Positions 6,377 through 30,559 of a DNA stretch of 43,346 nucleotides are shown here, piece after piece. Both the position numbers and the translations under genes were made by a program. Under the pieces are notes generated by a model. The model was not told the DNA's origin, made no database searches, and was given only the letters and a program-made list of their open reading frames with translations. Every line of letters starts with the position of its first letter. Within the stretch, counting starts at the first letter, position 1. The DNA is from an uncultured bacterium (lineage in GTDB: Bacteria > Lernaellota > Lernaellaia > Lernaellales > Lernaellaceae): contig CAZHPN010000029.1 of assembly GCA_964534375.1 (NCBI GenBank), forward strand, positions 1-43,346. The letters are read 5' to 3'.

Positions 6377-6898
6377 ATGGCGCGCAAGCAATCCAGAGAC
6401 CAAAGCACTGAGAAAAATGTCGGATTAGGCAATATTTTCCATAGCTTAGGCGGGTTCATCGACTTGCTGTCCGACCTGGCGGAGCAGGGCGGCGAATTCA
6501 AACGCTCCGGCGAAACCAGCAACGACAAAGACGGCGTCAAGGCCGTTTACGGCTTCTCGGTGCGCCTCGGCGGCGGCGGCGGCAAGCCGGTCGTCGAACC
6601 GTTCGGCAACGTGAAACGCGAGGGCCAAAAAGCGGTCGTCGACGATACGCGCGAGCCGATGGTGGACGTGTTCGACGAGGGCGATCATTACCGCATCGTC
6701 GCCGAACTGCCGGGCGTGACCGCCGAAGATATTCACTACGAGCTTCGTGACGATATCCTCAATCTGCGCGCGGCGCACGGCGAGAAAAAATATCGCAAAG
6801 AGATTCTGCTGCCGGCGCCGGTCGCAGCGGAGCGCATCAAGTCGTCGTACCGCAACGGCGTGCTGGAGCTCAAAGCGCCCAAAGGCAAAACGTCGTAA
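6377..6898 (+). CDS. Hsp20/alpha-crystallin family protein (GvpH-like small heat-shock protein)
   Basis: The alpha-crystallin domain reads 'MVDVFDEGDHYRIVAELPGVTAEDIHYELRDDILNLRAAHGEKKYRKEILLPAPVAAERIKSSYRNGVLELKAPK'. The start is the ATG at 6377, after GAGGGGGAAACC. The gene lies at the edge of the gas-vesicle region. Confidence 0.75.
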   Translation: MARKQSRDQSTEKNVGLGNIFHSLGGFIDLLSDLAEQGGEFKRSGETSNDKDGVKAVYGFSVRLGGGGGKPVVEPFGNVKREGQKAVVDDTREPMVDVFDEGDHYRIVAELPGVTAEDIHYELRDDILNLRAAHGEKKYRKEILLPAPVAAERIKSSYRNGVLELKAPKGKTS

Positions 6899-6954
6899 CC
6901 GAGAGCGCGGGCGCTCGGTCGCCGGCGCCGCCGTCCGACAGGGGGAGAGGCCGC

Positions 6955-7290
6955 ATGCAAACCATTCTCACGCTGGAAGACCTCATTCACGCGATGACCA
7001 ATTCGTTGAGCGTCATCTCGGGCCATTCCCAGCACCTGCTCACCAAAGAGGCGATCGCCGGCAAAGAGCGGGAAGACCTGGTGGTCATTCGCGAACAAGC
7101 CGAGCGCGCTGTGAATCTGCTCGAACTGGTGCCGCGCGATGTCGTCAAACGGCGCGTCGGCGCCGCGGCCGCCGCGGCCGCCGCGGCGCAAGCGGCCGGC
7201 GCGCCGGCCGACGGGGGACTCAATCGCGGTCGGCGGGCCGACGACGTGCGCCTCGCCGCCCAGGAAGGAGTGCGCAGTGAAACGGAGTAA
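6955..7290 (+). CDS. Small protein with a HisKA-like dimerisation/phospho-acceptor helix and no ATPase domain
   Basis: A GGGGGAGAGG SD precedes the ATG at 6955. 'LEDLIHAMTNSLSVISGHSQHLL' resembles an H-box (the E-x-x-H-x-x-x-N/S-x-L pattern). The C-terminal half is poly-Ala and low-complexity. It overlaps the following receiver gene. Confidence 0.4.
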   Translation: MQTILTLEDLIHAMTNSLSVISGHSQHLLTKEAIAGKEREDLVVIREQAERAVNLLELVPRDVVKRRVGAAAAAAAAAQAAGAPADGGLNRGRRADDVRLAAQEGVRSETE

Positions 7291-7699
7291 GAAACCGGGG
7301 CCGGACGTGATGGTCATGGTGGTGGACGACGAACCCTACATCTGCCGCTTTTTCGAGCGGGTCCTCGGCGACGAAGGCTATCGCGTCGTCACGACCACCA
7401 GCGGCCGGCGGGCGCTGACGCTCGCGACCGAGGTGCAGCCGGACCTCGTGCTGCTGGATATCGTCATGCCCGATCTCGACGGCGTGTCGACATTGCGCGG
7501 TCTGCGCACGGGCGGGTACCAGGGACCGGTGATCATGGTGACGGGCATGGGGACGATGCAGACGGCGCGCGAGGCCATGCTGCTCGAAGCGTATCAATAC
7601 ATCACCAAACCGTTCGACCTGGCGTTCGTGCGGTCGATCATTCGGGAAGTCGTGCGCGACTTTGCCGGCCGGCGGAAGGAAGTCGCGTGCGCACTCTGA
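7277..7699 (+). CDS. Single-domain response regulator (CheY-like receiver)
   Basis: The receiver motifs are 'VMVVDDEPYICRF', 'DLVLLDIVMPDLDG' (phospho-Asp) and 'ITKPF'. A GTG at 7277 is preceded by AGGAAGGAG; the ATG at 7310 is an alternative start. Confidence 0.7.
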   Translation: MKRSKKPGPDVMVMVVDDEPYICRFFERVLGDEGYRVVTTTSGRRALTLATEVQPDLVLLDIVMPDLDGVSTLRGLRTGGYQGPVIMVTGMGTMQTAREAMLLEAYQYITKPFDLAFVRSIIREVVRDFAGRRKEVACAL

Positions 7700-8334
7700 T
7701 CTACGTGCCGATCATTCATGCCGAGTCGGACCTGGGGACCATGGCCGACGATGTGCGCGCGCAGTTCGACGCCTTGCGCGAGTCCGGCGACAACTGGGAA
7801 CGGCGGGCCGCGGCGATCGACTCCATGTGGGACGGCATCCGCGCCAAACTGTTCGCGCTGCCCGTCGAATGGCGCCGCACGCGCGTCTACCAGGACGGCC
7901 TGCCCGTCTGCCATCTGGAGGCGCAAATCGTGAAGGACCTCGCGGCCAAGGGCAGCCGGAATTTTCAGTTGCTGCTCGAGTTGGCCGCGCGCGGCGGCAC
8001 GGTGATGGGCGCGGACAAATTGGAATTGCTCATCGAGGAATATCAACGCGTGCAAAAATTGGTGCAGGCGGCGCGCGACGGCGCGTCGGACGAGGCGGTG
8101 CGCGAACTGCAAGACGAGGGCGACGCCATCCTGCGCAAGCGCGACGAGTTCATCGCCGCGCACATTCAAGACACGCTGCAAGAGGGCGAAACCGGCGTGC
8201 TGTTTCTCGGCGTGCTGCATCGCGTCGACGAACTGCTGGCCGGGAAGTTCGAAGTGCGGCATTTGATCCACAGCCTCCCGTTCGAGTCGGACGTGCGGCG
8301 GCTTTTGAAGGAGCGTCAGCGATATGGTTCATGA
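7687..8334 (+). CDS. Hypothetical protein (215 aa)
   Basis: The ORF has a non-random composition and a GTG start. It overlaps the upstream receiver gene and the downstream AAA ATPase, so it may be co-transcribed. No motif is recognised. Confidence 0.4.
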   Translation: MRTLIYVPIIHAESDLGTMADDVRAQFDALRESGDNWERRAAAIDSMWDGIRAKLFALPVEWRRTRVYQDGLPVCHLEAQIVKDLAAKGSRNFQLLLELAARGGTVMGADKLELLIEEYQRVQKLVQAARDGASDEAVRELQDEGDAILRKRDEFIAAHIQDTLQEGETGVLFLGVLHRVDELLAGKFEVRHLIHSLPFESDVRRLLKERQRYGS

Positions 8335-10513
8335 AGCAAAAAAACGGCAGACGGAAAGTGTCGCCTTGCGCGTGGCCGAGGCGTTGCCCAAAGACGTCGG
8401 CCGCGGCATCGCCCGGCTCGACCCGCAGGACCTGGCGCGGCTCGGCGCCGAAGTCGGCGACGTGTTGCTGGTGACCGGCGAGCGCGCCACGGCGGCCAAG
8501 GCGATGCCCGCCTACAGCGAGAACCGCGGCCAGGGGCTCGTGCAGATCGACGGCATCGTGCGCGGCAACGCCAAGGCCGGCCTCGACCAGCGCGTCACCG
8601 TGGCCAAAAGCAGCCACGCCCCGGCCGCCAAGATTGTCATGCGGCCCGTCAACGCGGCGGCCGCGGGCCCCCGCGACGGCGACGCGCGCTACGTCGGCCG
8701 GCTGCTCGACGGCCTGCCGCTGCTCGCCGGCGACCGCGTGCGCGCCCTGCTGTTCGGCTCGCGCTTTCAGGATTTCGAGGTGGTGGCGACGCAGCCGCGC
8801 GAGGGCTGCGTGATCGTGCACCCGCAGACGCAAATCGTGATCGAAGCCGAGGGCAAAGCCGGCGGCGGCAAATCGGCCGGCATCTCGTATGAGGACGTCG
8901 GCGGCCTGCACAAGGAAACGCGCCGCGTGCGGGAAATGATCGAACTGCCGCTGCGCTATCCGCAAATCTTCGAGCGCCTGGGCATCGACGCGCCGAAGGG
9001 GGTGCTGCTCTACGGCCCGCCGGGCACGGGCAAGACCTTGCTCGCCCGCGCCGTCGCGCACGAGACCGAGGCGAATTTCATTTCGGTCAGCGGGCCGGAA
9101 GTGATTCACAAGTTCTACGGCGAAAGCGAAGCGAAGCTGCGCGGAATTTTCGAGCAGGCGCGCAAAACCGCACCGTGCATCATCTTCCTCGACGAACTCG
9201 ACGCCATCGCCCCCAAGCGCGAAAACGTGCAGGGCGACGTGGAAAAACGCGTCGTCGCCCAACTCCTGGCGTTGATGGACGGCTTGGAGACGCGCGGGCA
9301 GGTCATCGTCATCGGCGCGACGAATATCCCCAATGTGCTGGACCCGGCCCTGCGGCGGCCCGGCCGCTTCGATCGCGAAATCGAGATCGGCATCCCGGAC
9401 GCCGGGGCGCGGCGCGAAATCCTCGAGATTCATACGCGCGGCATGCCGCTGGCCGACGATGTCGACCTCGGCCGGCTCGCGGAAATCACGCACGGCTTCG
9501 TCGGCGCGGACCTGCAGGCGCTGTGCCGCGAGGCGGCGATGACGACGCTGCGCAACGTGATGCCGGGGATCGACCTGGCGAGCAAAGAAATCCCCTACGA
9601 GGTGCTGGTCGCGCTGAAGGTGACGATGGCGCACTTTCTCTCGGCCCGGGGCGAGGTCGAGGCCTCGGCGGTGCGCGAGGTGTTCGTCGACGTGCCCAAC
9701 GTCAGTTGGGACGACGTCGGCGGCCTGGACGACATCAAACGCGAATTGCACGAAGCGGTCGAGTGGCCGCTCAAACACGCCGCCTTGCTCGCGCACGCCG
9801 GCGTGTCGCCTTCGAAAGGGATTCTGCTCTACGGCCGGCCCGGCAGCGGCAAGACCCTGCTCGCCAAAGCCGTGGGCTCGCAAAGCGGCGTCAATTTCAT
9901 CTCGGTCAAAGGCCCCGCGCTGCTGTCGAAGTACGTCGGCGAAAGCGAAAAGGGCATCCGCGAAGTCTTCAAGAAAGCGCGCCAGGCCGCGCCCTGCATC
10001 TTGTTTTTCGACGAGATCGACGCGCTCGCGCCGACCCGCACCGCCGAAAGCGGCGATTCGCACGTGGCGCAACGCGTGATCAGCCAACTGCTGACCGAAA
10101 TGGACGGCGTGGAAGAGCTCAAGGGCGTGCTGGTCATCGCCGCCACCAATCGCAAGGACATGCTCGATCCGGCGCTGCTGCGACCCGGACGCTTCGATCT
10201 CTTGATCGAGATGCCGACGCCCGACGCCGGCGCCCGCGCCAAAATCTTCGAGGTCTGCCTGAAAGGGAAGCCCCTGGCCAAGGGCGTGCGCCTTACGGAT
10301 CTGGCGCAGCGCACCGAGGGCGCGACCGGCGCCGACATCGACTCGATCTGCCGCCGCGCCGCGTTCCTGGCGGTGCGCGATTTTCTCGCGACGCACGCCG
10401 ATGAAGACGCGGCCAGTCTGCGCATCACCGACGAAAAACTGCGGGCCGCGATCCGCGACATCAGGGGGTCGAATCCGTCCGCGCGCGACGAAGCCGAACA
10501 GCGAGCCCAATAA
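8324..10513 (+). CDS. CDC48/VCP-like AAA+ ATPase with two AAA domains
   Basis: It has an N-domain, two Walker A motifs ([15 protein letters not shown] and [15 protein letters not shown]) and two second-region-of-homology motifs ([13 protein letters not shown] and [13 protein letters not shown]). Confidence 0.85.
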
Positions 10514-10516
10514 GCG

Positions 10517-11830
10517 ATGTTCTGCCTGACGTACCAAAACGAACAGGAACGGGCCCGGGCCGTGGTCGCCATCGCCCGCCGTTGCCGGAAAGCGCGCACG
10601 GCTTTCGCGTTCGTCGGCACGGCGGCGCAATGCGCGGCCCTTCGGCCGGAGGTCAAACGGCTCTCGGCGCCGGTGCACCGGAGCGTGACCTACTGCGCCA
10701 CGGAACTCGCCGTGATCGCGCACAGTCATGCCGCGCTGAACGAGGCGATCGGCGCGTTGCGCACGACCTTGCTCGAACTGTCGGCCGACGGCCGCCCGCT
10801 GGTGGTCTGGGTCGATTCGCCGCTCATGCCCGCCGGCGCCGCGCATGCCGGCGCGATGTGGGTCTACCGCAACGCGGTCGACGATTTCGCGGCCCTGGCG
10901 CGGTTGCGCATCGTCAACGCCTATCGCTTCGCCGAGGTCGCGCCGGCGGTGCGCGCCAATTTGTTCGAGGTGGCCAACGCGGTCATCAGCGCCCGCTCCG
11001 TTTTCCCGCTCTGTCCGCCGTGGGTGATCGAAGCGCCGGCTGAACCGCGCCGCGACAATTCCCGGGTCGCCGGCGCGGCGGCGCCGGGGGCCGGCTTCGG
11101 CTTCGGTTCGTTGCTGCAGGCGGAAAAGCTGGCGACGATCGGGCAGATGGCCGCCGGCTTCGCGCACGAACTGGGCAATCCGCTGTCGGTTATCAGCTCC
11201 AGCATTCAGCATTTGCAACAACGGTTCGAGGCCGCCGGCGATCCGGAGCGCGAATTCGCGACGCTGGCCTTGCAAAACGTCGAGCGGATGCAGGGCCTGC
11301 TGCAGAACATTCGCGAGGCGGCGGGCGTGCGCGAACGGCAATTCCAGGCCGTCGAACTCAAAGAAGTCGTGGCGGAAGTGCTGCGCTTCGCGGCGGCGGA
11401 ATTTCGCCGGCGCGGCGTCGCGGTCCAGGTCCGGTTCGATGCGGCGTTGCCGCGCGTCTTCGTGGATCCCAGCGGCGTGAAACAGGTGTTGCTCAACGTG
11501 GTCCGCAATGCGCTCGACGCCATGAACGGCGGCGGCGGCGCGTTGCGCGTGCACGCGTCGTGGTCGCGGGACAAGAACGCGGCCGTCGTGAAAATTGCGA
11601 ACAACGGCCCGGCGATCGCCGCGGCGGATTTGCCCTGCATGTTCCGGCCGTTTTTTACGACGAAGAAAGAAGGGACCGGCCTCGGCCTTTTCCTGTCGCG
11701 AAAAATCGCGCGGGAGCATGGCGGCGACCTGGCGGCGGAAAACGTGCCGGGCGGCGTGCGCTTCGTACTGACGCTGCCGCGGGATCCCCGCGAAAGGGAC
11801 GATCATGGCCAACATACTAATTGTGGATGA
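10517..11830 (+). CDS. Cytoplasmic sensor histidine kinase (HisKA + HATPase_c) with an uncharacterised N-terminal domain
   Basis: The H-box is 'AAGFAHELGNPLSVI'. The N/G boxes are 'LLNVVRNALDAM' and 'FFTTKKEGTGLGLFLS'. No hydrophobic TM segments are seen. The 3' end overlaps the NtrC-type regulator by 26 nt. Confidence 0.8.
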   Translation: MFCLTYQNEQERARAVVAIARRCRKARTAFAFVGTAAQCAALRPEVKRLSAPVHRSVTYCATELAVIAHSHAALNEAIGALRTTLLELSADGRPLVVWVDSPLMPAGAAHAGAMWVYRNAVDDFAALARLRIVNAYRFAEVAPAVRANLFEVANAVISARSVFPLCPPWVIEAPAEPRRDNSRVAGAAAPGAGFGFGSLLQAEKLATIGQMAAGFAHELGNPLSVISSSIQHLQQRFEAAGDPEREFATLALQNVERMQGLLQNIREAAGVRERQFQAVELKEVVAEVLRFAAAEFRRRGVAVQVRFDAALPRVFVDPSGVKQVLLNVVRNALDAMNGGGGALRVHASWSRDKNAAVVKIANNGPAIAAADLPCMFRPFFTTKKEGTGLGLFLSRKIAREHGGDLAAENVPGGVRFVLTLPRDPRERDDHGQHTNCG

Positions 11831-13211
11831 CGAACCGAATCTGTGCCGGCTGCTGACGATGCTGCTGCGCGAGCACGGGCACCGGGCGCGGTACGTGCTG
11901 TCGGGCGAGGATGCGCTGACCGCCGCGGCCGAACACGTCCCCGATCTCGCGCTGCTCGACTTGAACATGACCGGCATGGACGGCATGGAAACGCTGCGGC
12001 GGCTGAAACGCCAGGCCCCCGAACTCCAGGTGGTCATCATGTCGGCCGTCGGCGACCTGAGCGTGGCCGTGCGGGCGATGAAACAGGGCGCCGTCGATTT
12101 CCTTTCCAAACCGTTCGACAACAAGGCGTTGCTGTCCACGATCGACACTCATCTGGCCAACCGTAGCGAGGCCCCCCCGGACTCGCCGTTGCTCATAGGA
12201 CAGAGCCCTACCTTCCTGACCGCCGTCGACGAGGCGCGCAAATTCGCGCCGCCCGACATCAACGTGCTGCTGCTTGGCGAGACCGGCACGGGCAAGGAAC
12301 TCTTCGCGAAGACGATCCACGCTTGCAGCAAACGGCGCAACGGACCGTTCGTGGCGATGGACTGCTCGATGCTCGCCGAGAACCTGTTCGAGAGCGAACT
12401 GTTCGGCTATGAAAAAGGGGCCTTCACCGGCGCCGACACGTCGCGTATCGGCCGGCTGGAGCTGGCCCAGGGCGGCACGCTGTTCCTGGACGAAATCGGC
12501 AATCTGCCGCTGGCGTTCCAGGCGAAGATGCTGCGCGTTCTACAGGAGCGCCGCATGGTGCGCGTCGGCGGGCGCAAGACGATCGCCCTGGATGTGCGGC
12601 TGATCTCGGCGACCAATGTCAATGTCAAAGAAGCGGTCCAGGCGGGCCGGTTCCGGCAGGATCTCTTTTATCGGCTGCAGGAAGTCGCGATCAACCTGCC
12701 GCCGCTGCGCGAACGTCCCGGCGATGTGCGGCTGCTCGCGGAACGTTTCGTCGCGACCTACGCCAAGGCCTTCCAGGCCCCGGTGGCCTCGATCTCGCCG
12801 GAGGCGCTCCGGACGCTGGAATCGCATCCGTGGCCGGGCAATGTCCGCGAACTCGAAAATGCGATGAAGTCCGCCGTGGTGCGGGCCGCGGACATTATGC
12901 GCCGCGAGGATCTGCCGCCCGAGATTCAGGGGGAGTGTGCGGCGCCCGCCGCTTCGGCCCCGGCGTCCGCGCCGATCGGCCGGCGCCAGCGGCTGCTCGT
13001 GGAAATCGAATACGAACTCGACGCGCTGGGCGTCGACTTGAAAGCGATCGGCGCGCAAGCGGCCGAGCGGGCGGAAAGCCAGGTGCTGCAGGATTTGTCG
13101 AAGCGCGTGCGCGTCGCGGGCAGCCGCCTGGCGAAAATGGTCAACGTCGACCCCAAGACGTTGCGGACCAAGCTGCGCAAATACGGTCTCGAAACTCACG
13201 GAATATCATAA
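11805..13211 (+). CDS. Sigma-54-dependent response regulator (NtrC family enhancer-binding protein)
   Basis: The receiver reads '[14 protein letters not shown]' and '[13 protein letters not shown]'. The AAA+ sigma-54 interaction domain reads '[12 protein letters not shown]' and '[15 protein letters not shown]' (GAFTGA). A C-terminal HTH is present. Confidence 0.85.
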
Positions 13212-13413: not shown

Positions 13414-13429
13414 TGGCGCCGGTCTTGCT
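13414..13429 (+). promoter_or_regulatory. Sigma-54 (-24/-12) promoter TGGCGC-cggtc-TTGCT upstream of gvpA
   Basis: Read directly: the GG and GC dinucleotides are spaced as in the consensus TGGCAC-N5-TTGCW. It lies about 50 bp upstream of the gvpA start and directly downstream of the NtrC-family activator gene. Confidence 0.6.
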
Positions 13430-13480: not shown

Positions 13481-13702
13481 ATGGCAAAGGTTATGAAGTC
13501 AACTGATTCCTCGAGCCTGGCGGAAGTGGTGGACCGGATTCTCGACAAAGGCATCGTGATCGACGCTTGGGCCAAAGTCTCGCTGGTCGGCATCGAACTG
13601 TTGTCGGTCGAAGCGCGCGTTGTTATCGCGTCGGTCGAGACGTACCTGAAGTACGCGGAAGCCATCGGCTTGACCGCCACCGCGGCCGCGCCCACGGCGT
13701 AA
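13481..13702 (+). CDS. gvpA: Gas vesicle structural protein GvpA
   Basis: '[65 protein letters not shown]' is almost the canonical GvpA sequence. An AAGGGG SD lies 8 nt upstream of the ATG at 13481. Confidence 0.95.
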
Positions 13703-13719: not shown

Positions 13720-13761
13720 GGGGTCCGCTCCCCGAGACTGGCGGGCACGTCGATCTCGGGG
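13720..13761 (+). terminator. GC-rich stem-loops just after gvpA: GGGG-tccgct-CCCC and CCCCGAGA-N16-TCTCGGGG. This is a possible attenuator or partial terminator with no U-tract.
   Basis: Read directly. The position is like the partial terminators often found after gvpA that lower expression of downstream gvp genes. Confidence 0.3.
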
Positions 13762-13854
13762 GGCGGCTCCGACGAAAGCCGCGGTCGGCAACGTTTCACG
13801 GCGCGCGGTTCCCTTTGACGGGCCGCCGCCTCAACCGAAGAAAGGAGATCGGTG

Positions 13855-14280
13855 ATGAGCAATCATTTTACGAGTTTCACGGTCGATACGATGAAAGCGT
13901 TTGGCCAGGATTTGGCGGATCTGGCGCAGCATCGCACGGAAAGCATCACGAACATCCGCAATCATACCGAAGGCATGCTCGCGGGGTTCCTGAAAGAATT
14001 TCACGACGCGGCCGCCAAGCGCCGGAACGATGCGGCGGAAGACGCCGAAGCCCGCCGCAACCACTTGAACGCCTTGCGCGCCGAAGTGCAGTCGCTGCGC
14101 GAGACCTTCACGGCCGAGCGCGAAGCGATGGCCACCGACATCCGCGAGATGGCCGCCGAGCTGCGGCAGGCGTGCGAAACGTTCCGCAATCGTCCGCGGG
14201 CCGACCAGGCCTCGCCGGCGAAGGAATCGCCGCGCAGCAGCGGCCGCGGCAAGAACAAGCACAACAAGAGCGCGGAGTGA
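13855..14280 (+). CDS. Coiled-coil protein in the gvpC position. It has no GvpC 33-aa repeats.
   Basis: An AGGAGA SD precedes the ATG at 13855. The protein is Ala/Glu/Arg-rich and predicted helical (AEDAEARRNHLNALRAEVQSLRETFTAEREAMATDIREMAAELRQ). It lies between gvpA and gvpN. Confidence 0.5.
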   Translation: MSNHFTSFTVDTMKAFGQDLADLAQHRTESITNIRNHTEGMLAGFLKEFHDAAAKRRNDAAEDAEARRNHLNALRAEVQSLRETFTAEREAMATDIREMAAELRQACETFRNRPRADQASPAKESPRSSGRGKNKHNKSAE

Positions 14281-14380: not shown

Positions 14381-15412
14381 ATGAACGGAAACGGCGAACA
14401 ACCCAATGTCGTAGCTCTCATGGACATCGCGTCGCCGACGGGCATGGCCGTCGAACCGAGCGAGGACTTCGTTCAAACTCCCGCGGTGCGGCAGTTGGCG
14501 AACCGGGCTCTCGCCTATCTCAAAGCGGGATACCCGGTTCATTTCTCCGGCCCGACGGGAACGGGAAAAACGACGCTGGCGCTGCACGTGGCGGCGCTGC
14601 GCGGCCGGCCGGTCACGCTGATGCACGGCGACGACGAGTTCAGCTCCAGCGACCTGGTCGGCGGCGAATACGGATATCGCAAAAGCAAGCTGATCGACAA
14701 CTTCATTCACTCGGTGGTCAAAACGGAAGAAAGCGTCAACACGCTGTGGACGGACAATCGGCTGACGCTGGCCTGCCGGGCCGGCGACACGTTGGTGTAC
14801 GACGAATTCACGCGCTCGCGGCCGGAAGCGAACAACGCGCTGCTCTCGGTGCTCGAGGAGCGGTTGCTCTCGCTGCCCAAACGGATGCCGCGCGCGGACG
14901 GTTATATGGAAGTCCATCCGGATTTTCGCGCGATCTTCACGTCGAATCCGGAGGAATACGCCGGCGTCCATCGCACGCAGGACGCGCTGCTGGACCGCCT
15001 GATCACCATCAAGGTCGATTATTTCAATCGCGATACGGAGGTGGAAATTACCCGCATGAAATCCGGACTGACCTTGGCGGAAGCCGTGATGATCGTGGAT
15101 GTCGTGCGCCAGTTGCGCGATATGGGGTTGACCAAGCAAGGGCCGAGTCTGCGCGCCTGCATCATGATCGGCCGCATCGCGGCTCAGCAGGGCGCGCACG
15201 CCCGGCGCGGCGACACGGTGTTCTCCGAAATCTGCCACGACGTGCTGGGCGGCCTGGCGCCGCGGGTCGTGCACGACGGCAAAAAGGGCATTCACTCGAT
15301 GATCGACGAAATCATCGCCAAGTGCGCCAAGGACGAGCGGCGGCCCGTGCGGGAAATCGCGGTCGGCGACAACGGGACGGCGATCGCCGTGAAGAAGGAG
15401 CAGCGGTCATGA
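14381..15412 (+). CDS. gvpN: Gas vesicle protein GvpN (MoxR/CbbQ-like AAA+ ATPase)
   Basis: The Walker A motif is 'FSGPTGTGKTTLALHVA' and the Walker B region is 'TLVYDEFTRSRPEANNALLSVLEER'. The size and position after gvpA are as expected. Confidence 0.85.
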   Translation: MNGNGEQPNVVALMDIASPTGMAVEPSEDFVQTPAVRQLANRALAYLKAGYPVHFSGPTGTGKTTLALHVAALRGRPVTLMHGDDEFSSSDLVGGEYGYRKSKLIDNFIHSVVKTEESVNTLWTDNRLTLACRAGDTLVYDEFTRSRPEANNALLSVLEERLLSLPKRMPRADGYMEVHPDFRAIFTSNPEEYAGVHRTQDALLDRLITIKVDYFNRDTEVEITRMKSGLTLAEAVMIVDVVRQLRDMGLTKQGPSLRACIMIGRIAAQQGAHARRGDTVFSEICHDVLGGLAPRVVHDGKKGIHSMIDEIIAKCAKDERRPVREIAVGDNGTAIAVKKEQRS

Positions 15413-15723
15413 AAAAACCGTCGCGCGAAGCCAAGTGCATCAAGACGTTGGCGTCGATTCGGGGCTCGGGATCGAATTCGGGCGAGCGCCACGTGCACCA
15501 ATTTCAATTGGCTTCCTTGGAACTCGACCGCTCGCGGCGGATGAACGAGAAGAACTCGGCCGCGGCGCGGATTCGGGAAATCGACGTGCGGCTGCACGAG
15601 ATCGACAAAGAGATTCGCCGGCATCAGCAGGCGTTGGACGCGGGCGGCGCCGGCCGCGCGTCGTCGCCGGCGAACGCGTCCGAACCAGCGGCGGGCCCGC
15701 GCCGACGGACGTTGCGGTACTAA
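15409..15723 (+). CDS. Small coiled-coil protein (104 aa), translationally coupled to gvpN (ATGA overlap)
   Basis: The ATG at 15409 overlaps the gvpN stop codon. It has a helical charged segment 'NEKNSAAARIREIDVRLHEIDKEIRRHQQALDAGG'. Confidence 0.45.
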   Translation: MKKPSREAKCIKTLASIRGSGSNSGERHVHQFQLASLELDRSRRMNEKNSAAARIREIDVRLHEIDKEIRRHQQALDAGGAGRASSPANASEPAAGPRRRTLRY

Positions 15724-22258: not shown

Positions 22259-23230
22259 ATGGAGCCAGTGCGCGAGGCGAAAGCCACCGTCACGGACCTG
22301 CTCGATCGGTTGTTGGAAACCGGCGTCATTCTCGATTTGGACATGATCATCGGCATCGCCGGCGTGCCGTTGATCGGGGTCAGTCTGCGCGCCGCGATCG
22401 CGGCCATCGAAACGATGATCGAGTACGGGTTCATGCAGACATGGGACGAAAACACGCGGCGCTACGCCGAGCGCGAATTGCAGAGCAAACGTTTGCCGTT
22501 TGGGCGGGACGAACGCACGCTGGTGGAAATGTTCGGTTCGCATTGGTCGGCCGACGGCATCCAGCGGGCGTGGCGGCCCGGCCGGTTGTTCGTGACCAAT
22601 CAACGCTTGATCCTGTATCGGCGGATGCCCGCCGAGGTCCTGTTCGAGGCTCCGTTGGGACGCATCGCCGGCCTCGCGACCGGTGAGAGCGTGCGCTTCG
22701 ACGGGCGACGCGTCCCGCTCTTGCACATCACGTTGGACGACGGCGCCGCCGCGTCGTTCTACGCCGAGGATCTCGACGGCCTGCGGTCGGCGTTGGAAGA
22801 GCAATTGGCGGCGATGGGCGTGGCCGTCACCGCAACGAGCGAGGCCTGGGGTCAGGATTGCGAAGCGGCCGACGCGATGCCCGGCGCGCAGATCCTGGCC
22901 AAGGGCATGATGTGGCGGCAGGAATCCGGCGCGCCAGGGATCGCGGCCGAATGGCGCCCGGGAATTCTCTATTTGACCGACAAGGGGTTGCTCTGGTGGT
23001 CGCAGAACCGCCGGCGTCTGGAACTGCGCATCGCGGCCTCGTCGATCCTGGGCGTGACCGCGGAGACCCATGAAAAAAGCGCGTTGCTGCCCGAGAGTTC
23101 GATGCTGGTCGTGCGCTGGATGGGCCAGGACGCCACGATGACCAGCTTGTTCACTGGGAAAGCCGTCGAAGAGTGGCGTCGCGCGATTCGCCGCGTGGCG
23201 GTCGATGACAAAAGTGGAGCAGCGTCATGA
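22259..23230 (+). CDS. GvpJ/GvpM-like N-terminal domain fused to two PH/GRAM-like domains
   Basis: The N-terminus '[48 protein letters not shown]' is GvpA-like. Two repeats follow: '[35 protein letters not shown]' and '[35 protein letters not shown]'. These resemble bacterial PH/GRAM-like beta-sandwich domains; the domain call is by pattern, not by search. Confidence 0.55.
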
Positions 23231-23547
23231 TCGATGTCGACGAAGGGAACTTGAAGCAAGGTCTGCTGGGCCTGGTGATCGCCTTGGTCGAAGTGATCAA
23301 GGACGCGCTGGCGACGCAGGCCTTCCGGCGGATGGAAAACGGGCATTTGACCGACGCCGAGGTCGAGCGGCTCGGCGCCGCGCTGGCGGATTTGGACGTC
23401 GTGCTGGCGCAGATCAAAGAAGAACACGGCGTCGCGGAGGCGGTTCAACAGGTGCGCGACAGCCTCGACGATCTGGTCGGCGACGTGGTCGACCGCCTGT
23501 CGAATCCCGGCCGTTGGCCGGAAGCGGCCGAGCCGCTGTCGTCGTGA
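23227..23547 (+). CDS. gvpK: Gas vesicle protein GvpK
   Basis: '[57 protein letters not shown]' matches the GvpK pattern (LVLTVVELLRQLMEAQAIRRMEAGSL...). There is an ATGA overlap with the upstream gene. Confidence 0.8.
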
Positions 23548-23600
23548 ACGAATGCGGGGGGAATCCCCCACGCGTGTTCCGCTGGGGACGGAAGGCAACG

Positions 23601-26600
23601 ATGGATATTCGCCGGAAGAACGGAGGCCGCGCGGCGCGTATTTTCTACCTGATCTTCGTTCTTTTTGCCGCGGGCATCGTCGCCGGCGGCTACCTCTACT
23701 TCCATTACTATGAAAAGCACTACCGCATTGAGGTCGAGCATCAGCTTTCGGCCATCGCAGAACTGAAGGTGAGCGAACTGGCGCGGTGGCGCCAGGAAAG
23801 GTTGGCGGACGCGGCCGTCTTTTATCGGAACGACGCGTTCGCCGCGCTCGTGCGGCGTTATTTCGAGAAGCCGGACGATGCGGCAACGCAAGCGCAACTC
23901 GGGGCCTGGCTGGCGCATTTTCAGCAGGCGGAGCACTACGACGCGGTGATGTTGCTGGACAATCAATACGTCGGAAAGATGATTTTTCCCGCCGGACCGG
24001 AGCGCGGGCTCGCCTTCGTTTCTCCGGGCGTCGCGGCGACCCTGCAAGCGGGCCAGGTGGCCTTTGAGGATTTTTACCGCGACGAGCAGAACCGGCGAAT
24101 CTACCTGAAAACCATGATCCCGATTTTCGATGAACCGGACGGCGGCCGGCGTCTGGGCTGCCTGGCGCTACGAATCGATCCCACAACGTATCTCTACCCA
24201 TTTATCCAGCGCTGGCCGCTGCCCGGTCGCACCGCGGAAACGTTGCTCGTTCGCCGCGAAGGAAAGGACGTACTCTTCCTGAACGAGCTCAAATTCGCCG
24301 CCGACGTGGCGCTCACGCGGCGCATCCCGCTGGCGAGACAAGACGTGCTCGCCGTCAAGGCCGTCGCCGGACACCAAAGCATCGTCGAGGGCCTGGACTA
24401 CCGGAACGTGCCGTCGATCGGCGCGGTGCGGGCCGTTCCGGATTCGCCGTGGTTCCTCGTCGCGCGCATGGACACCGCCGAGGTGTATGCGCCGCTGCGC
24501 GGCCGGCTGTTGGCGACCGTGATCGTGGCGTGCCTGCTGCTCGTGTGTTCCGCCTTTGGCGCCGGCCTGGTCTGGCGGCAACGCGACGCCGCATTCTATC
24601 GGGCGCAATGCCAGTCGGACGAAGCCTTGCGGGAAAGTGAAAAAAAATTGCGCAGCTATATCGACAATGCGCCCGACGGGGTGTTTGTCGCCAACGAACT
24701 CGGCCACTACTTGGAGGTCAATCCGGCAGCCTGCGAGATGACCGGCTACTCCCGCGAAGAACTGACAAAATTGAATTTCATGGAGCTGGTTCCTCCGCAC
24801 GCAAAGGAAGCCGCTCGGCAGGCGTTTGCATCGGTCGCGCGGACCGGCAAGACGCGCGTCGAAATACCATTTCTTCGCAAAGACGGCCAAAGCCGTTTCT
24901 GGAGCGTCGACGCCGTCAAGCTGACGGATTCGGGATACCTCGCTTTTACCAAGGATACCACGGCACGCCGACGCGCCGAGGAAGAGCTGCGGGCGAGCGA
25001 AGGGAAACTGCGCAGCTATATCGACAATGCGCCGGACGGAGTTTTTGTCGCCAACGAACTCGGCAACTATTTGGAGGTCAATGCAGCAGCCTGTGAGATG
25101 ACCGGCTACTCCGGCGAAGAACTGACGAAAATGAATCTCATGGAACTGATTCCTCCACACGGAAAAGAAGCCGCGCAAAAGGCTTTTGAAGCGGTCGCGC
25201 AAACCGGCAAAATCCGCGTCGAAATTCCGTTTCTTCGCAAAAACGGCCAAGGCGGTTTCTGGAGCGTCGACGCCGTCAAGTTGACGGATTCGAGATACCT
25301 CGCATTTACCAAGGACATCTCGGCACGCCGACGCGCCGAGGAAGATCTGCGGGAGAGCGAAAGGAAATTGCGCAGCTATATCGACAATGCGCCCGACGGG
25401 GTTTTTCTCGCCAACGAATTGGGCAACTACGTCGAGGTCAATGCGGCGGCATGCGCGATCACCGGTTACTCCCGCGAAGAACTCCTGCAGATGAATCTGA
25501 TGGATCTCGTGCCGCCGGAAGGAAGAGACGCCGCGCGGCAGTCCTTCGAGGACGTCGTGCACACGGGCAAAACCAGCGTCGAATTTCCCGTCGTCCGCAA
25601 AAACGGCGAAGTCTTTTTCTGGAGCGTCGATGCGGTGAAATTGTCCGATACGCGATTTCTCGGATTCAAGAAGGACATCACCGCGCGCAAACGCGCCGAA
25701 GAGGCGCTGCGCGACAGCGAAGCCCGCTTTCGGGTGCTGTTCGACAGTTCCCACGACGCGATGATGATCCTGGAGCCGCCGCTCTGGAATTTCACCTCCG
25801 GGAACCCGGCGACGATCGCGATGTTCAAAGCCAAAGACAGCCGCGAATTCGAGTCGTACGGTCCGGCCGGGCTGTCTCCGGAACGCCAGCCGGACGGCCG
25901 CGCCTCCGCCGAAAAAGCGCGGGAGATGATCGACACAGCGATGCGGGAGGGCTCCCACTTTTTCGAGTGGACGCACCGGCGGGTCGACGGCGAAGATTTC
26001 TCGGCTACGGTCCTGCTCAGCAAGATCGAGTTGGCCGGGAAACCGATGCTGCAAGCGACGGTGCGGGATATTTCGGCGCAAAAACGCGCCGAGGAGACGT
26101 TGCGTCAGACGACTGAGCGGGCCAACCAAATGGCCGTCGAGGCGCAGGCGGCCAATATCGCCAAGAGCCAGTTCCTGGCCAACATGAGCCACGAAATCCG
26201 CACGCCGATGAATGGCGTCATCGGTATGACCGGCTTGCTGTTGGACACCGAGCTATCCGAGGAACAGCGCCGCTACGCCGAGACGATCCGCTCCAGCGGC
26301 GATTCGTTGCTGCGCGTGATCAACGACATTTTGGATTACTCGAAAATCGAAGCGGACAAGTTGGAATTGGAGACGCTCGATTTCGACCTGCGGGCGACGT
26401 TGGAGGACACGGCCGAACTGCTGGCGCTGCGCGCCTGCGACAAAAACCTCGAATTCGTTTGCCGCATCGATCCGACGACGCCGACTTTCCTGCGCGGCGA
26501 TCCCGGGCGTTTGCGCCAGATCCTCGTCAATCTGGGCGGCAACGCAATTAAATTCACCCAGAAAGGCGAGGTGGAAATCGACGTCCGGCCGGAGGCCGAA

Positions 26601-28109
26601 ACCGCCGAGCGGTTTACCGCCCGCTTTGCGGTGCGCGACACCGGCATCGGCGTTCCGGCCGACAAAATCGGGCTGCTGTTCAATGCCTTTCAACAGGTGG
26701 ACGCGTCCACTACGCGCTTGTTCGGCGGCACGGGGCTCGGGTTGGCCATTTCCAAACAACTGGTCGAGCAGATGGGCGGCGCGATCGGCGTGGAAAGCGT
26801 CGCAGGCCAAGGGACGACCTTCTGGTTCACTGCGGTTTTCGACAAGCAACCGCGGCGCGAAGACCGCGAGGATGCGCCGCGCGCCGACGTGCGCGGCATG
26901 CGCATTCTGGCCGTCGACGACAACGACACCAACCGCCTGGTGCTGGCGGAGCAACTGGCGTCCTGGGGCGTCCGCCACACCGAAACCGACAGCGCTCCCG
27001 AGGCGCTGCGGCTGATGCGCGCCGCCTGCGCCGAGAGCGACCCATTCCGCATTGTGGTTACGGATATGCAAATGCCGGCGATGGACGGCGAGGCGCTCGG
27101 CCGCGCCGTCAAGGCCGATCCCGAGTTGCGCGACACGCTGCTGGTGATCATGACGTCGCTCGGTCGCCGCGGCGACGCGAAACGGCTGGAGGCGATCGGC
27201 TTCGCGGCGTATTTGACCAAGCCGGTCAGACAGTCGCAATTGTACGATTGCCTCGCCACCGTGCTGGGCCGCGTGCCGACAACCGCCCAGGCCGACCCCG
27301 CACTGGTCACGCGCCACACGCTGGGCGAACTGCGCCGGCGAAAAGTTCGCATTCTGTTGGCCGAGGACAACGCCACCAATCAACAGGTGGCGCTCGGCAT
27401 CCTTGAAAAACTGGGTTTCCACGCCGACGCCGTGGCCGATGGGGAGGAAGCGATCCGCGCGCTCGAAAGCAATCCATATGATCTCGTTTTCATGGACGTG
27501 CAGATGCCGGTCATGGACGGCTTCGCGGCGACGCGCGCGATTCGTTCCGGCAAGACAAAAATAGCCAATCCGAAAATTCCCATTGTCGCGATGACGGCCC
27601 ACGCGATGAAGGGCGACCGCGAGCGCTGCCTGGCCGAAGGCATGGACGACTATGTGTCGAAACCGATCGGTTCGCAGGCGCTGGCCGAGGCGCTCGACCG
27701 CTGGCTCGGCCGCGTTTCCGACAAACGGCCGCCGCTCCACGTTTTCGCCAAAGCTCTGGACGCTGGCGAGGGGCCGCTTGTTTTCGACCGCGCGGCCCTC
27801 ACGGCGCGCCTCATGGGCGACGAGGATCTGCTCGCGGAAATCGTCGCGGGATTTCTCGGCGACATGCCCCGACAGATCGGCGAACTCCGAGCCTGCGTCG
27901 AACGGTCGGAGGCGGTGTCGGCGGCGAACCAGGCGCACACAGTTAAAGGCGCGGCGGCCAACGTGGGCGGCCTCGCCCTGAGCGCGGCGGCGCTGGCGAT
28001 CGAGAAATCCGTCAAAGCCGGCGATTGGGAAGAGAGCGCCGCCCTGTTGCCGGAGTTGGAGCGGCAGTTCGAATTGTTGCGGGCGGAGATGCCGGAGGCC
28101 GGTCGATGA
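23601..28109 (+). CDS. Large hybrid sensor histidine kinase (about 1500 aa). The domain order is an N-terminal extracytoplasmic sensor domain flanked by TM segments, 3 tandem near-identical PAS domains plus a fourth PAS, HisKA, HATPase_c, 2 receiver domains and a C-terminal Hpt domain.
   Basis: The start is the ATG at 23601, from '[34 protein letters not shown]', which contains TM1. TM2 is '[23 protein letters not shown]'. The H-box is '[15 protein letters not shown]' and the G box is '[19 protein letters not shown]'. The receivers read '[10 protein letters not shown]...[12 protein letters not shown]' and '[10 protein letters not shown]...[12 protein letters not shown]'. The Hpt domain reads '[13 protein letters not shown]'. 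The longer ORF from 23205 overlaps gvpK in another frame and is rejected. Confidence 0.85.
24620..25700 (+). repeat. Three in-frame tandem repeats of 360 bp (120 aa) inside the hybrid kinase, each encoding a PAS domain
   Basis: TTGCGCAGCTATATCGACAATGCGCCCGACGG recurs at about 24648, 25008 and 25368. The protein repeats ('[13 protein letters not shown](V/L)ANELG.Y(L/V)EVN.AAC..TGYS.EEL...N.M.L.PP....') appear about 80-90% identical to each other by eye. Confidence 0.8.
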
Positions 28110-29023
28110 AGGTCCTGATCGCCGAAGACGATCTCACCTCGCGCCGGATTCTGAGCGCGATTCTGAAGAAATGGGGCTACGAGCCCGTCGTCACGGAAGA
28201 CGGCGACGCGGCCTGGGACGCGTTGCAACAGCCGGAATCGCCCAAGCTGGTTCTCCTCGATTGGAACATGCCGGGGATGGATGGGGTGGAAGTCTGCCGG
28301 CGATTGCGGCAGAGCGTCTGCGCCAATCCGCCGTACGTCGTGCTGCTGACCGGGCACGGGGAAAAGAACGATATCGTCCGCGGCTTGGAAGCGGGCGCGA
28401 ACGACTACATCGCCAAGCCGTACGACAGCGAGGAGTTGCAGGCCCGGATCAAAGTCGGCCAGCGCATGGTCGAATTGCAAGCCGGTCTGTCGGCGGCGCG
28501 CGACGCCCTGGAGTTTCAGGCGATGCACGATTCGTTGACGGGCATTTTCAATCGCCGCGCCATTCTGGACCGGCTAGCGGCGGAGCTTTCGCGGACCAAA
28601 CGACAAGGCGGCGGCCTCAGCGTGGGCATGTGCGATATCGATCATTTCAAGAACGTCAACGACACCTTCGGCCACCAGACCGGCGACGAAGTGTTGATCG
28701 CGTTCACACGGCGCCTCCAGGCCAGCCTGCGGGAATATGACTGCCTGGGCCGCTATGGCGGCGAAGAGTTTCTCGTCATCGCCGCCGGTTCGGAAGGAAC
28801 GAGCGACGAAAGTCTCTACGAGCGGCTGCGCGCCGCCGTCGCGAACGGCGCGATGCCGACAAAAGCGGCGGTCCTGTCGATCACCGTCAGCATCGGGGTG
28901 GCGTCGGGCGCGGCGCAGAGCACGGTCGACAACTTGCTGGCCGACGCCGACGCGGCGCTGTATCAAGCCAAGGCCGACGGCCGCAATCGCGTTGCCTATT
29001 GGCAGCCGAAGGAGAAATCATGA
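28106..29023 (+). CDS. Response regulator with a GGDEF domain (PleD/WspR-like diguanylate cyclase)
   Basis: The receiver reads '[14 protein letters not shown]' and '[13 protein letters not shown]'. The GGDEF domain reads 'RYGGEEF' with the upstream '[14 protein letters not shown]'. There is an ATGA overlap with the hybrid kinase gene. Confidence 0.85.
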
Positions 29024-29730
29024 TTGAAAAAGCCGGGCGAGCCGAGTCGATCGATCACAATTCGGCGTCGCACGATCAGTCGCTGCTTGTCGCCCAGGGC
29101 GGTTTTTTGTCCCGCCCGCAGGCCGCGTGGCAAATCGGGCAATGGTCGCTGCTGTCCGAGCGGTTGGTCTTCGGTCAGTCGAGCCGGCGCGTGTTCGATC
29201 TGCCGCTCGATAAGATCGAGGCGGTGGCGCAGGAGCGCCGCAAATTCATCCTCGTACACAAGCCGGTCATCCGTTTGACCTTTCTTCACCCGCGAAGAAA
29301 CGATCGGCGCGACGCTTGGCTGATCGCGTCGCCGCTGGATCGCTGGGCGGAATCGCTTCGTCTGCTGACGGGGTTGCGGCTCGACGACGCGACTGGCGAA
29401 CGCAATCGCGCGGCCGGCGTTTTGCCGGCGGAATCCGCCGACCCGGCCAGCGATGTCGCGCAGGGCGACGAGATTCCGGGCGCCGAGCCGCAGTTTGAAG
29501 TTCACGACGAGGCCGAGGCGCTGTGGGTCGTAGCCGTCATCCCCGGCGTGCGAAAAGAGACCTTGCGTGCGGAAGTCCATGGTCGAAGTCTGGACGTGGA
29601 GACGGAGACAGCGCACGGTCCGTGCGCTTTGCGCATCCCGTTGCCCTGCCGCGTGCTGCCCCAACCGACCGAACTGAAATGCGCCAACGACGTGTTGAGC
29701 GCGCGCCTGAAAAAAACGGCGTGGAGGTGA
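29020..29730 (+). CDS. PH/GRAM-like N-terminal domain fused to an Hsp20/alpha-crystallin-like C-terminal domain (GvpH-like?)
   Basis: An AAGGAGAAATC SD precedes the ATG at 29020, and there is an ATGA overlap with the GGDEF gene. The N-terminus 'WQIGQWSLLSERLVFGQSSRRVFDLPLDKIEAV' is similar to the repeats in 22259-23230. The C-terminus 'FEVHDEAEALWVVAVIPGVRKETLRAEVHGRSLDVETE...LKCANDVLSARLKK' is alpha-crystallin-like. Confidence 0.5.
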   Translation: MIEKAGRAESIDHNSASHDQSLLVAQGGFLSRPQAAWQIGQWSLLSERLVFGQSSRRVFDLPLDKIEAVAQERRKFILVHKPVIRLTFLHPRRNDRRDAWLIASPLDRWAESLRLLTGLRLDDATGERNRAAGVLPAESADPASDVAQGDEIPGAEPQFEVHDEAEALWVVAVIPGVRKETLRAEVHGRSLDVETETAHGPCALRIPLPCRVLPQPTELKCANDVLSARLKKTAWR

Positions 29731-29734
29731 AACC

Positions 29735-30559
29735 ATGAGCCAATCGACGTACGAGCCCGTAAAGTCAGAACCGGTCGGAAGATATGTGTATTGCGTCGCC
29801 GCGGGCGAACTCGGCCCGCCGCCCGTGCCGGGGCTCGACAGTTGCCCCGTGCGCGCCGTGTCGGCCGCCGGCCTCACCGCGTTTCTGCACGACTGCGCGG
29901 CGGCGCCGTATCGCGGCGACGACGAAAAGGTCGCCGCGTGGGTGGTCGCGCACGGCGAAGTGGTCGACGCCGTTTGGGACAAAATCGACCCGGTGCTGCC
30001 GCTGGCGTTCGACACCATTATTCGCCCGGACGACGGTTTGGACGGCGACGAGCAGGTTCGGCGCTGGCTGGCGATGGAGAAGGACCGCTTTGGCGCGCTG
30101 CTCGATTCGTTGCGCGGCAAAGTCGAGCTCGGCGTTCAAGTCTTCTGGATTTCCAACGTGGTCGGCGCCGCCGTCGCCGAGGGCGACGAAGAGATTTGCC
30201 GGTTGCGCGCCGAGATGGCCGGCAAGCCCAAGGGCATGGCCTACTTTTACCAGCAGAAAATCGAGCGCGCATTGCGGCGGGCGCTCGAAATTCGCGCCGA
30301 GGCCGATTACCGCCTGTTTTTCCGGCAGATCGCCTTTCTTTGTCCGGAAGTGCGCCTCAACAAGGTGCGCAAGGCGCCGGAGCGGCAGATGATTCTCAAC
30401 GTGTCGGTGCTGGCGCCGCGCGAACAAGTCGCCGAGTTGGGCGACGTCGTCGCGGGGTTTCAAAAGACGGCCGGGGTGGAAGTGCGCTTTACGGGCCCGT
30501 GGCCGCCGTACAGTTTTGTGCGGCCGAAACCGAACCCGGCGCCGGTCGAGGAGAATTAG
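29735..30559 (+). CDS. gvpL: Gas vesicle protein GvpL/GvpF family (second paralogue)
   Basis: The N-terminus 'RYVYCVAAGELGPPPVPGLDSCPVRAVSAAGLTAF' is typical of GvpF/L. It is 274 aa with a GGAGGTGA SD. Confidence 0.75.
   Translation: MSQSTYEPVKSEPVGRYVYCVAAGELGPPPVPGLDSCPVRAVSAAGLTAFLHDCAAAPYRGDDEKVAAWVVAHGEVVDAVWDKIDPVLPLAFDTIIRPDDGLDGDEQVRRWLAMEKDRFGALLDSLRGKVELGVQVFWISNVVGAAVAEGDEEICRLRAEMAGKPKGMAYFYQQKIERALRRALEIRAEADYRLFFRQIAFLCPEVRLNKVRKAPERQMILNVSVLAPREQVAELGDVVAGFQKTAGVEVRFTGPWPPYSFVRPKPNPAPVEEN

Follow-up and report, generated by a model that had tools for sequence, protein, structure and literature searches.

Predicted c-di-GMP signalling modules in a gas-vesicle gene cluster of an uncultured Lernaellaceae bacterium

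Gas vesicles provide motility by flotation, and are under development as acoustic reporter genes; cyclic di-GMP (c-di-GMP) is the chief signal by which bacteria switch between a free-living and an attached state. The two meet in a 43,346-nucleotide contig of an uncultured bacterium of the Lernaellaceae (CAZHPN010000029.1, GenBank assembly GCA_964534375.1), the whole of which we call the window: its gas-vesicle (gvp) gene cluster also holds genes for a predicted c-di-GMP phosphodiesterase and a predicted diguanylate cyclase. Is flotation tied to c-di-GMP in this organism, or are the signalling genes passengers among gvp genes? We found two complete two-component modules with opposite predicted c-di-GMP outputs, which appear to have joined the gvp string at two different times.

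The locus is a gas-vesicle gene cluster of about 24 kb, laid out like the proteobacterial clusters under the control of GvrA/B/C. It encodes a GvpA-family protein together with the accessory set GvpN, GvpF/L, GvpG, GvpJ/M and GvpK. From gvpA to gvpL there are 17 closely spaced genes on one strand, plus one doubtful open reading frame (ORF), and the cluster reaches upstream into a GvrA/B/C-like regulator set with a Cdc48-type AAA+ gene (7139-13211). The gvp, Hsp20-like and signalling genes named in a preliminary description of this DNA are indeed on the forward strand, essentially where that description had placed them (Table 1).

The gene map combines frame analysis by G+C content at third codon positions (GC3), a listing of ORFs and the public gene calls on identical contigs, all of which agree; the G+C content of the window is about 64%. 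Domains were assigned by Pfam and NCBIfam scans of the window's ORFs. As marker for related clusters we used the protein that joins a GvpM/J-like N-terminus to PH/GRAM-like domains (GvpM-PH), with 90 homologues and with tblastn-confirmed stretches numbering 359 in genomes and 554 in metagenomes. Window proteins were then placed by tblastn on 80 genome and 80 metagenome loci with flanks of up to 10 kb. Gene order was counted in the 63 loci that have the order gvpM-PH, gvpK, PH/Hsp20, and tblastn matches to GGDEF and HD-GYP domains were counted over 161 related clusters. The nearest relative, with a GvpM-PH protein 72% identical to that of the window, is represented by loci L005 and L168 (assembly GCA_964653995.1) and is called the sister lineage below. 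These sequences show directly which genes are present, how they are ordered and spaced, which motifs they carry, and how far they are conserved and under selection.

The two signalling modules

Module 1 comprises a CheR-like gene, a PAS kinase gene and a REC-HD-GYP gene. The last has the marks of the RpfG type, a receiver fused to a domain with the HD dyad (residues 222-223) and an HHExxDGxGYP-type motif (HHERWNGSGYP, 275-285, N replacing D); these and D51 of the receiver are intact. In the sister lineage the genes run CheR-like, PAS kinase, REC-HD-GYP, gvpJ, gvpM-PH, gvpK, PH/Hsp20 and gvpL, followed by a sigma-54 activator that is convergent, so module 1 is conserved in place. Amino acid identity between the two lineages is 53% for the CheR-like protein, 72% for the PAS kinase and 81% for REC-HD-GYP, and the corresponding ratios of nonsynonymous to synonymous substitution rates (dN/dS) are 0.33, 0.28 and 0.17, beside 0.13-0.46 for the flanking gvp genes. 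In two sister lineages, module 1 belongs stably to the cluster and is under selection. It lies directly upstream of a conserved gvpJ-gvpM(PH)-gvpK-PH/Hsp20-gvpL core, in a slot that varies among relatives, where it is filled by a TetR gene and a second gvpF, by other regulators or by other genes. Module 1 is therefore not in the middle of an ancestral operon.

The CheR-like gene had also earned the region the label of a chemosensory-like, methylation-based system, and this label is wrong. Of the Che-type domains, Pfam scans of the window's ORFs found CheR_N and CheR alone; MCPsignal, CheW and CheB_methylest were missing, as was any kinase of the CheA type. The best solved relative of the CheR-like protein is CheR1 of P. 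aeruginosa. In an exhaustive search its closest homologues were mostly proteins of 800-1600 amino acids with the CheR region at about residues 210-500; among those scanned, CheB_methylest, CheR and PAS occur together in five of six, PAS_10 in four of five and a HisKA-HATPase core in two of five. Pfam detected neither PAS_10 nor CheB in the window protein (PAS_4 at E=0.074), and the kinase is encoded separately, which sets the gene apart from the fusions themselves. By its homologues it is best described as a split and truncated derivative, the N-terminal, methyltransferase half, of a sensor of the CheB-CheR-PAS-kinase type. The split from the PAS kinase gene is also present in the sister lineage. 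Given this split of a fusion-family sensor, and no methyl-accepting chemotaxis protein (MCP), CheA, CheW or CheB, module 1 is read as one two-component system and not as a chemosensory pathway. No homology was detected for the N-terminal 110 residues of the CheR-like protein; by eye they resembled a vestigial CheB domain, but Pfam gave this no support even at E<=0.5.

Module 2 comprises the hybrid kinase gene and the REC-GGDEF gene. Two predicted transmembrane segments of the kinase flank its weakly dCache-like domain. REC-GGDEF qualifies by motif as a diguanylate cyclase: D52 of the receiver, the active site GGEEF (218-222) and, five residues before it, the RxxD inhibitory site (I-site) REYD (209-212) are all intact. 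On these motifs both REC-GGDEF and the REC-HD-GYP protein of module 1 look active.

Module 2 interrupts a junction that is otherwise invariant. In every one of the 63 same-order loci PH/Hsp20 starts at most 65 nt from gvpK, the median being an overlap, versus a gap of 5.5 kb in the window; module 2 is therefore a derived, lineage-specific insertion. The window and L168 are colinear at the DNA level up to 23528 and again from 29496. The insertion preserves the ATGA coupling to the downstream PH-Hsp20 gene. At the edges of the inserted 23.5-29.0 kb stretch we found no target-site duplications, terminal inverted repeats or mobile-element signatures. A foreign origin was considered from composition and rejected, the GC and GC3 of the inserted genes being in line with those of their neighbours.

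The REC-GGDEF family is very large and highly conserved, with thousands of relatives, and the best 120 listed are 67-80% identical. The nearest among the matches listed (80%) lies in a cassette of hybrid kinase, REC-GGDEF and REC-HD-GYP genes with unrelated flanks (L169 and L170). The kinase of the L169 cassette is colinear with that of the window (48% identity in the N-terminal sensor part, 64% in the rest) and about 240 residues shorter, because the PAS unit of the window kinase is tandemly triplicated; its REC-HD-GYP is 47% identical to that of the window. The cassette occurs in three samples together with the window contig and in a sample with the sister contig, and may belong either to the sister, as an orthologue, or to the genome of the window itself, as a paralogue. 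Module 2 represents a common stand-alone cassette that was captured recently and in this population alone.

The window is a metagenome contig in which the CheR-like N-terminus and a 65-codon ORF (17020-17217) are both without detected homologues, which might point to an assembly chimera or to a decaying cluster without biological meaning. We hold this to be very improbable. The gvpK/hybrid-kinase junction was found in four independent assemblies (from JGI, ENA and Logan) with identical proteins, and the GGDEF/PH-Hsp20 junction likewise in four, one of which runs on into gvpL, so a chimera can be dismissed; decay is countered by ORFs that are all intact, coding-like GC3, intact motifs and dN/dS well below 1. 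The contig occurs in JGI samples 3300014160 and 3300014161 and in SRR6946416, SRR6181340 and ERZ27249816.

Transcription through the modules

Co-transcription of the signalling and gvp genes, proposed in the preliminary description, is plausible, and on the following signals we consider it likely. All genes lie on one strand, and gaps between gvpA and gvpL are at most 102 nt except after gvpA (152 nt to the 141-residue ORF) and between gvpG and the CheR-like gene (about 234 nt). A Shine-Dalgarno-like GGAG or GAGG precedes every gene start. No predicted terminator falls at a gene junction between gvpA and gvpL, where terminator-like sites number 29 compared with 24 +/- 5.6 in shuffled sequences; the single well-placed one is 3' of gvpL. 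Motif scans found no sigma-70-like or sigma-54-like sites at the gene junctions either. GC3 is 0.77-0.83 for the signalling genes and 0.74-0.83 for the gvp genes.

Of three 4-nt overlaps that had been cited as joining structural to signalling genes, only the ATGA of GGDEF/PH-Hsp20 (29020-29023) does so; that of GvpM-PH/gvpK joins two structural genes and that of hybrid kinase/GGDEF two signalling genes. The remaining gaps between signalling and structural genes are 3 nt (HD-GYP to gvpJ), 53 nt (gvpK to hybrid kinase) and the longer one after gvpG.

A sigma-54 -24/-12 box with one mismatch stands before gvpA, and another of the same quality before the upstream Hsp20/regulator unit; matches to such boxes occur at chance frequency across the window. 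Among gvpA relatives for which upstream sequence is available the closest is L008 (GvpA 93% identical), and it has a perfect box 94 nt 5' of gvpA. With an NtrC-type activator, a kinase and a receiver in the cluster and a predicted sigma-54 box at gvpA, the locus agrees by domain type with GvrA/B/C-type regulation. The spacer of 148 nt after gvpA folds at -76.7 kcal/mol (z = -2.5) and contains a very stable hairpin with a perfect stem, which might stabilise the transcript or partly attenuate it and so keep gvpA mRNA in excess. Co-transcription is at its weakest in the 234-nt, 76%-GC spacer between gvpG and the CheR-like gene; the stretch 17020-17257 is either a non-coding spacer or the site where an internal promoter would sit.

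Passengers or partners of the gas vesicle

The preferred reading, to which we give a probability of roughly 0.45, is that an operon-encoded pair of sensor-gated c-di-GMP enzymes ties the flotation programme to the lifestyle choice that c-di-GMP controls. The upstream unit (Hsp20/GvpH, CheY-like receiver, Cdc48-type AAA+ protein, kinase and NtrC-type activator) would precede a sigma-54-type promoter. Module 1, probably the older and common to the sister, would pair the split CheR-like/PAS sensor kinase with an RpfG-type REC-HD-GYP phosphodiesterase; module 2, probably the younger and present in this population only, would be a copy of a kinase-GGDEF(-HD-GYP) cassette of the stand-alone kind, inserted between gvpK and PH/Hsp20. 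Both would most likely be transcribed by read-through from the promoter of the gvp genes. With vesicle synthesis turned on by the GvrA-like activator, a sensor-gated breaker and a sensor-gated maker of c-di-GMP would be produced too, and the floating state might thus be coupled to the choice between free-living and attached life, or c-di-GMP might feed back on vesicle production through a putative receptor. Here we infer co-transcription, the enzyme activities, the pairing of kinases with regulators and any effect on buoyancy; at present the evidence consists of gene context from a single small lineage of uncultured bacteria.

Several results weigh against this reading. The preliminary description had asked whether the signalling genes recur in related gvp clusters: module 1 does recur in the sister lineage, but neither the sister nor any of the 63 same-order loci has the hybrid kinase and GGDEF pair, and module 2 is limited to a single population. 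Nor are c-di-GMP genes enriched near the 161 related clusters, where GGDEF/HD-GYP matches per 100 kb number 0.17 inside, 1.75 within 3 kb and 4.57 beyond 3 kb; this, and the homologue of module 2 outside gvp clusters, weakens the coupling of gas vesicles to c-di-GMP that was first suggested. An effector in cis was sought as a GEMM-I/II riboswitch or a PilZ domain. No Rfam family of any kind matched the cluster at E<=1, hence no c-di-GMP riboswitch, the single match at that threshold being a spurious microRNA elsewhere (5402-5528), and Pfam scans found a PilZ domain in none of the products. The spacer upstream of the CheR-like gene and the hairpin after gvpA could divide the cluster into separate transcription units. 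Gas-vesicle formation itself is predicted from genes, in an uncultured organism represented by metagenome contigs.

The flank bears on the same question. The minus strand 3' of gvpL is dense in signalling genes, and a segment there is duplicated (30571-35612 and 38270-42911), the copies sharing 74% amino acid identity in a sigma-54 activator and 61%/47% in a PAS hybrid kinase; between them stand genes for a NarL-type regulator (35829-36485) and for a PAS-HisKA_3 kinase (36537-38273). The sister has a single activator copy at this flank. A region that accumulates signalling genes raises the prior for neutral capture, and the flank duplications together with the PAS triplication make chance capture credible, a further point on the unfavourable side.

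It is accordingly quite possible, if short of probable, that both modules are ordinary c-di-GMP cassettes inserted at tolerated gvp positions, expressed by read-through and serving the general network with no role in buoyancy. The lack of enrichment, the missing effector in the Rfam scan and the duplicated flank fit this well, as do the module 2 homologue standing alone in the window's own samples, perhaps within the same genome, and the next-closest homologues of REC-HD-GYP (58% and 52%), which follow PAS kinases in unrelated, non-gvp contexts. What speaks for partners instead is that, since the separation from the sister, module 1 has stayed exactly in place, still split in structure and under purifying selection, that an insertion of 5.5 kb in the otherwise invariant gvpK-PH/Hsp20 junction retains the ATGA coupling to the gene downstream, and that two groups of Anaerolineae have independently placed c-di-GMP genes in or at gvp clusters. 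In metagenome-assembled genomes of the first group, L038 (15232-16197) and L023 (10861-11736), a REC-GGDEF gene lies inside the cluster, between its gvpA end and a divergent Cdc48/Hsp20 pair; in the second, Anaerolineales L034 (13756-15267), L024 and L123, a PAS-PAS-HD-GYP gene directly follows gvpL on the same strand, with an OmpR-type regulator after it in L034. Pfam confirmed the domains in both, and these are independent, lineage-conserved c-di-GMP genes in or at gvp clusters. Separately, about 250 nt directly 3' of gvpL in L093 (13806-14054) and L094 (5900-6148) encode no more of an HD-GYP domain than its C-terminal third, with 53% identity to the window protein, and may be the remnant of a lost HD-GYP gene.

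A stronger version, in which a dedicated push-pull circuit made only alongside the vesicles gates their assembly or expression through a new receptor, we regard as unlikely. Candidate receptors would be the pseudo-receiver sigma-54 activator, the Cdc48 and GvpN ATPases, and the PH-like domains on GvpM and Hsp20. Both convergent activators have receiver-like N-termini in which the phospho-acceptor Asp is missing ('VVLLGPAG'). A FleQ-like role as c-di-GMP receptor was considered for them and rejected, their best structural relatives being of the NtrC1 type with FleQ further down; by eye, and short of a formal comparison, they also seem to misfit the c-di-GMP motifs of FleQ, LFRS and an R-N after Walker A. 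Were such a circuit real, buoyancy would be controlled by c-di-GMP as swimming and attachment are, and the Anaerolineae cases would be independent inventions of the link.

Less probable again is that the kinases mainly feed the GvrA-like activator and the CheY-like receiver by phosphotransfer, with module 2 acting through its Hpt domain and the c-di-GMP enzymes secondary. A hybrid kinase with two receivers and an Hpt domain does suit branched phosphorelays. Kinase and receiver genes are common next to or inside gvp clusters (a kinase match lies within 3 kb in 24 loci and inside in three), in agreement with the Gvr paradigm; L008 and L070 have kinase and receiver pairs directly upstream of gvpA, and expression of Serratia gvpA1 requires GvrB and GvrC (PMC4982088). 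The kinase gene of each module, however, overlaps a REC-output gene of its own or is followed by it at once, an arrangement typical of cognate pairs, and the GvrA-like activator already has a dedicated kinase beside it.

If the embedded enzymes do act on buoyancy, as the preferred reading would have it, flotation would join the behaviours controlled by c-di-GMP, and the cluster would supply a compact circuit from sensor to buoyancy, of natural origin, that could be tested in heterologous hosts.

The wider cluster and its known counterparts

Table 1. Features of the gas-vesicle cluster and its 3' border, in window coordinates
Feature	Position	Strand	Remarks
Sigma-54-like -24/-12 box TGGCACGATTATTTCA	6123-6138	+	1 mismatch; 5' of Hsp20/regulator unit; motif match only
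Hsp20/GvpH-like small heat-shock protein	6377-6898	+	Pfam HSP20 and GvpH; NCBIfam Hsp20 142 bits
Single-domain CheY-like receiver (GvrC-like)	7139-7699	+	PF00072 E=3e-27
215-residue ORF	7687-8334	+	No domain detected; coding-like GC3 0.83
Cdc48-family double AAA+ ATPase	8324-10513	+	TIGR01243 906 bits; common in such gvp clusters
Histidine kinase (GvrB-like)	10517-11830	+	HisKA + HATPase_c
REC-AAA+-HTH sigma-54 activator (GvrA-like, NtrC-type)	11805-13211	+	Response_reg + Sigma54_activat E=6e-68
Sigma-54 -24/-12 box TGGCGCCGGTCTTGCT	13414-13429	+	1 mismatch; ~50 nt 5' of gvpA; predicted promoter
gvpA, major structural protein	13481-13702	+	PF00741 E=1.6e-16
Hairpin, 13-bp perfect stem, no U-run	13720-13770	+	Directly 3' of gvpA
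141-residue ORF	13855-14280	+	Family matches all sub-threshold
gvpN AAA+ ATPase	14381-15412	+	TIGR02640 358 bits, cut-off 267
104-residue ORF	15409-15723	+	Weakly conserved beside gvpN in L070
83-residue CxxC...CxxC protein	15778-16029	+	Conserved in L008, L070
gvpF	16019-16783	+	PF06386 E=7e-56
gvpG	16793-17023	+	PF05120 E=1e-15
Doubtful 65-codon Arg-rich ORF, or non-coding spacer	17020-17217	+	Public gene call; 76% GC
CheR-type S-adenosylmethionine methyltransferase with C-terminal PAS-like tail	17258-18865	+	CheR E=4e-50, CheR_N E=1e-14
Cytoplasmic PAS-PAS-HisKA-HATPase kinase	18862-20586	+	GTGA start overlaps cheR-like stop
REC-HD-GYP (RpfG-type) predicted c-di-GMP phosphodiesterase	20600-21724	+	HD_5 (PF13487) E=3e-37, Response_reg E=7e-29
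gvpJ with C-terminal CxxC...CxxC tail	21728-22156	+	PF00741; NCBIfam GvpJ 101 bits < cut-off 125
GvpM/J-like N-terminus + two PH/GRAM-like domains	22259-23230	+	PF00741; NCBIfam GvpM 82 bits < cut-off 109
gvpK	23227-23547	+	PF05121 E=4e-17
1502-residue membrane hybrid kinase	23601-28109	+	2 transmembrane segments, weak dCache, 3 PAS, HisKA, HATPase, 2 REC, Hpt
Tandem triplication of 360-nt PAS-coding unit	24645-25722	+	Inside hybrid kinase; 82% matches
REC-GGDEF (PleD/WspR-type) predicted diguanylate cyclase	28106-29023	+	GGDEF (PF00990) E=7e-45, Response_reg E=2e-28
PH-like + Hsp20-like protein	29020-29730	+	Weak NCBIfam Hsp20 match, C-terminus
gvpL	29735-30559	+	PF06386 E=2e-61
Convergent sigma-54 activator	30571-31944	-	Receiver-like N-terminus without phospho-acceptor Asp; kept beside gvpL in sister

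Further features of the cluster recur among its relatives. Homologues of the Cdc48-type ATPase, at 56-65% identity, are found in many related loci. gvpK is bracketed by a conserved pair of fusions, GvpM/J-like with PH/GRAM-like on one side and PH-like with Hsp20-like on the other, found in loci L006-L167. Homologues of the former bear precomputed GRAM and Vps36-GLUE Pfam matches, and the titles of their records name Chloroflexota, Actinomycetota, Desulfobacteraceae, Bacillota, Omnitrophota, Planctomycetota-type orders and a Methanocellales archaeon. The GvpJ tail (CPQC...CPWC) is zinc-ribbon-like, and homologues of it recur 3' of gvpM-PH genes in many related loci; two CxxC pairs are present in the small ORF 5' of gvpF as well. 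On the minus strand, upstream of the cluster by a few kb, lies a gene for a glycyl-radical enzyme (PFL-like + Gly_radical, 2539-5301), and one likewise lies a few kb upstream of gvp in the 56%-related locus L006 (3529-6000), which may be coincidence or a conserved neighbourhood.

To our knowledge, almost nothing is known of gas-vesicle regulation outside haloarchaea, cyanobacteria and Serratia. Full-text searches of the literature found no paper on c-di-GMP genes in gvp clusters or on a link between c-di-GMP and gas vesicles, only incidental co-mentions; to this extent the arrangement is undescribed, as the preliminary description had it.

Several well-studied systems resemble one part of the locus or another. 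In RpfC/RpfG of Xanthomonas a sensor kinase is paired with a REC-HD-GYP c-di-GMP phosphodiesterase, RpfC being a membrane hybrid kinase that senses the diffusible signal factor (DSF). Module 1 likewise places a gene for REC-HD-GYP beside one for a presumed sensor kinase; both the HD dyad and the HHExxDGxGYP-type motif are there and the activity is predicted, but the kinase is a cytoplasmic PAS protein split from a CheR-like one, and the setting is a gas-vesicle operon instead of a quorum-sensing locus. The REC-GGDEF protein of module 2 resembles PleD and WspR: its receiver, which has the phospho-acceptor Asp, is joined to a GGDEF domain that carries GGEEF and, five residues before it, an RxxD I-site. 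A complete chemosensory array, made up of MCP, CheA, CheW, CheR and CheB homologues, drives WspR, whereas its window counterpart is partnered by a hybrid kinase with an Hpt domain, and the sole Che-type domain of the window, CheR, lies in the other module. That CheR-like protein has its closest homologues in the widespread and little-studied CheB-CheR-PAS_10-PAS(-HisKA-HATPase) fusions, from which it differs in having no CheB and in being divided into two genes by a stop/GTG overlap, a division kept in the sister.

Regulators encoded within gas-vesicle clusters are themselves a known principle, so this part of the arrangement is not new. Haloarchaeal clusters encode GvpD and GvpE (mentioned in PMC4982088), which belong to protein families unrelated to those of the window and do not involve a second messenger. 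Closest in layout is Serratia sp. ATCC 39006, where the NtrC-type activator GvrA, encoded in the cluster, drives a sigma-54 promoter at gvpA1, and where the kinase GvrB and the receiver GvrC are embedded in the gvp operons as well and are also required for gvpA1 expression (PMC4982088). The likeness lies in two-component genes within the gvp cluster, an NtrC-type activator and a sigma-54-type promoter before gvpA; the window has the same trio, likened by domain type, upstream of its -24/-12 box. The Serratia cluster is not described as having genes of the GGDEF, HD-GYP or CheR-like kinds, and transcription is what its regulators act on, whereas the window adds to such a set two modules with predicted second-messenger outputs.

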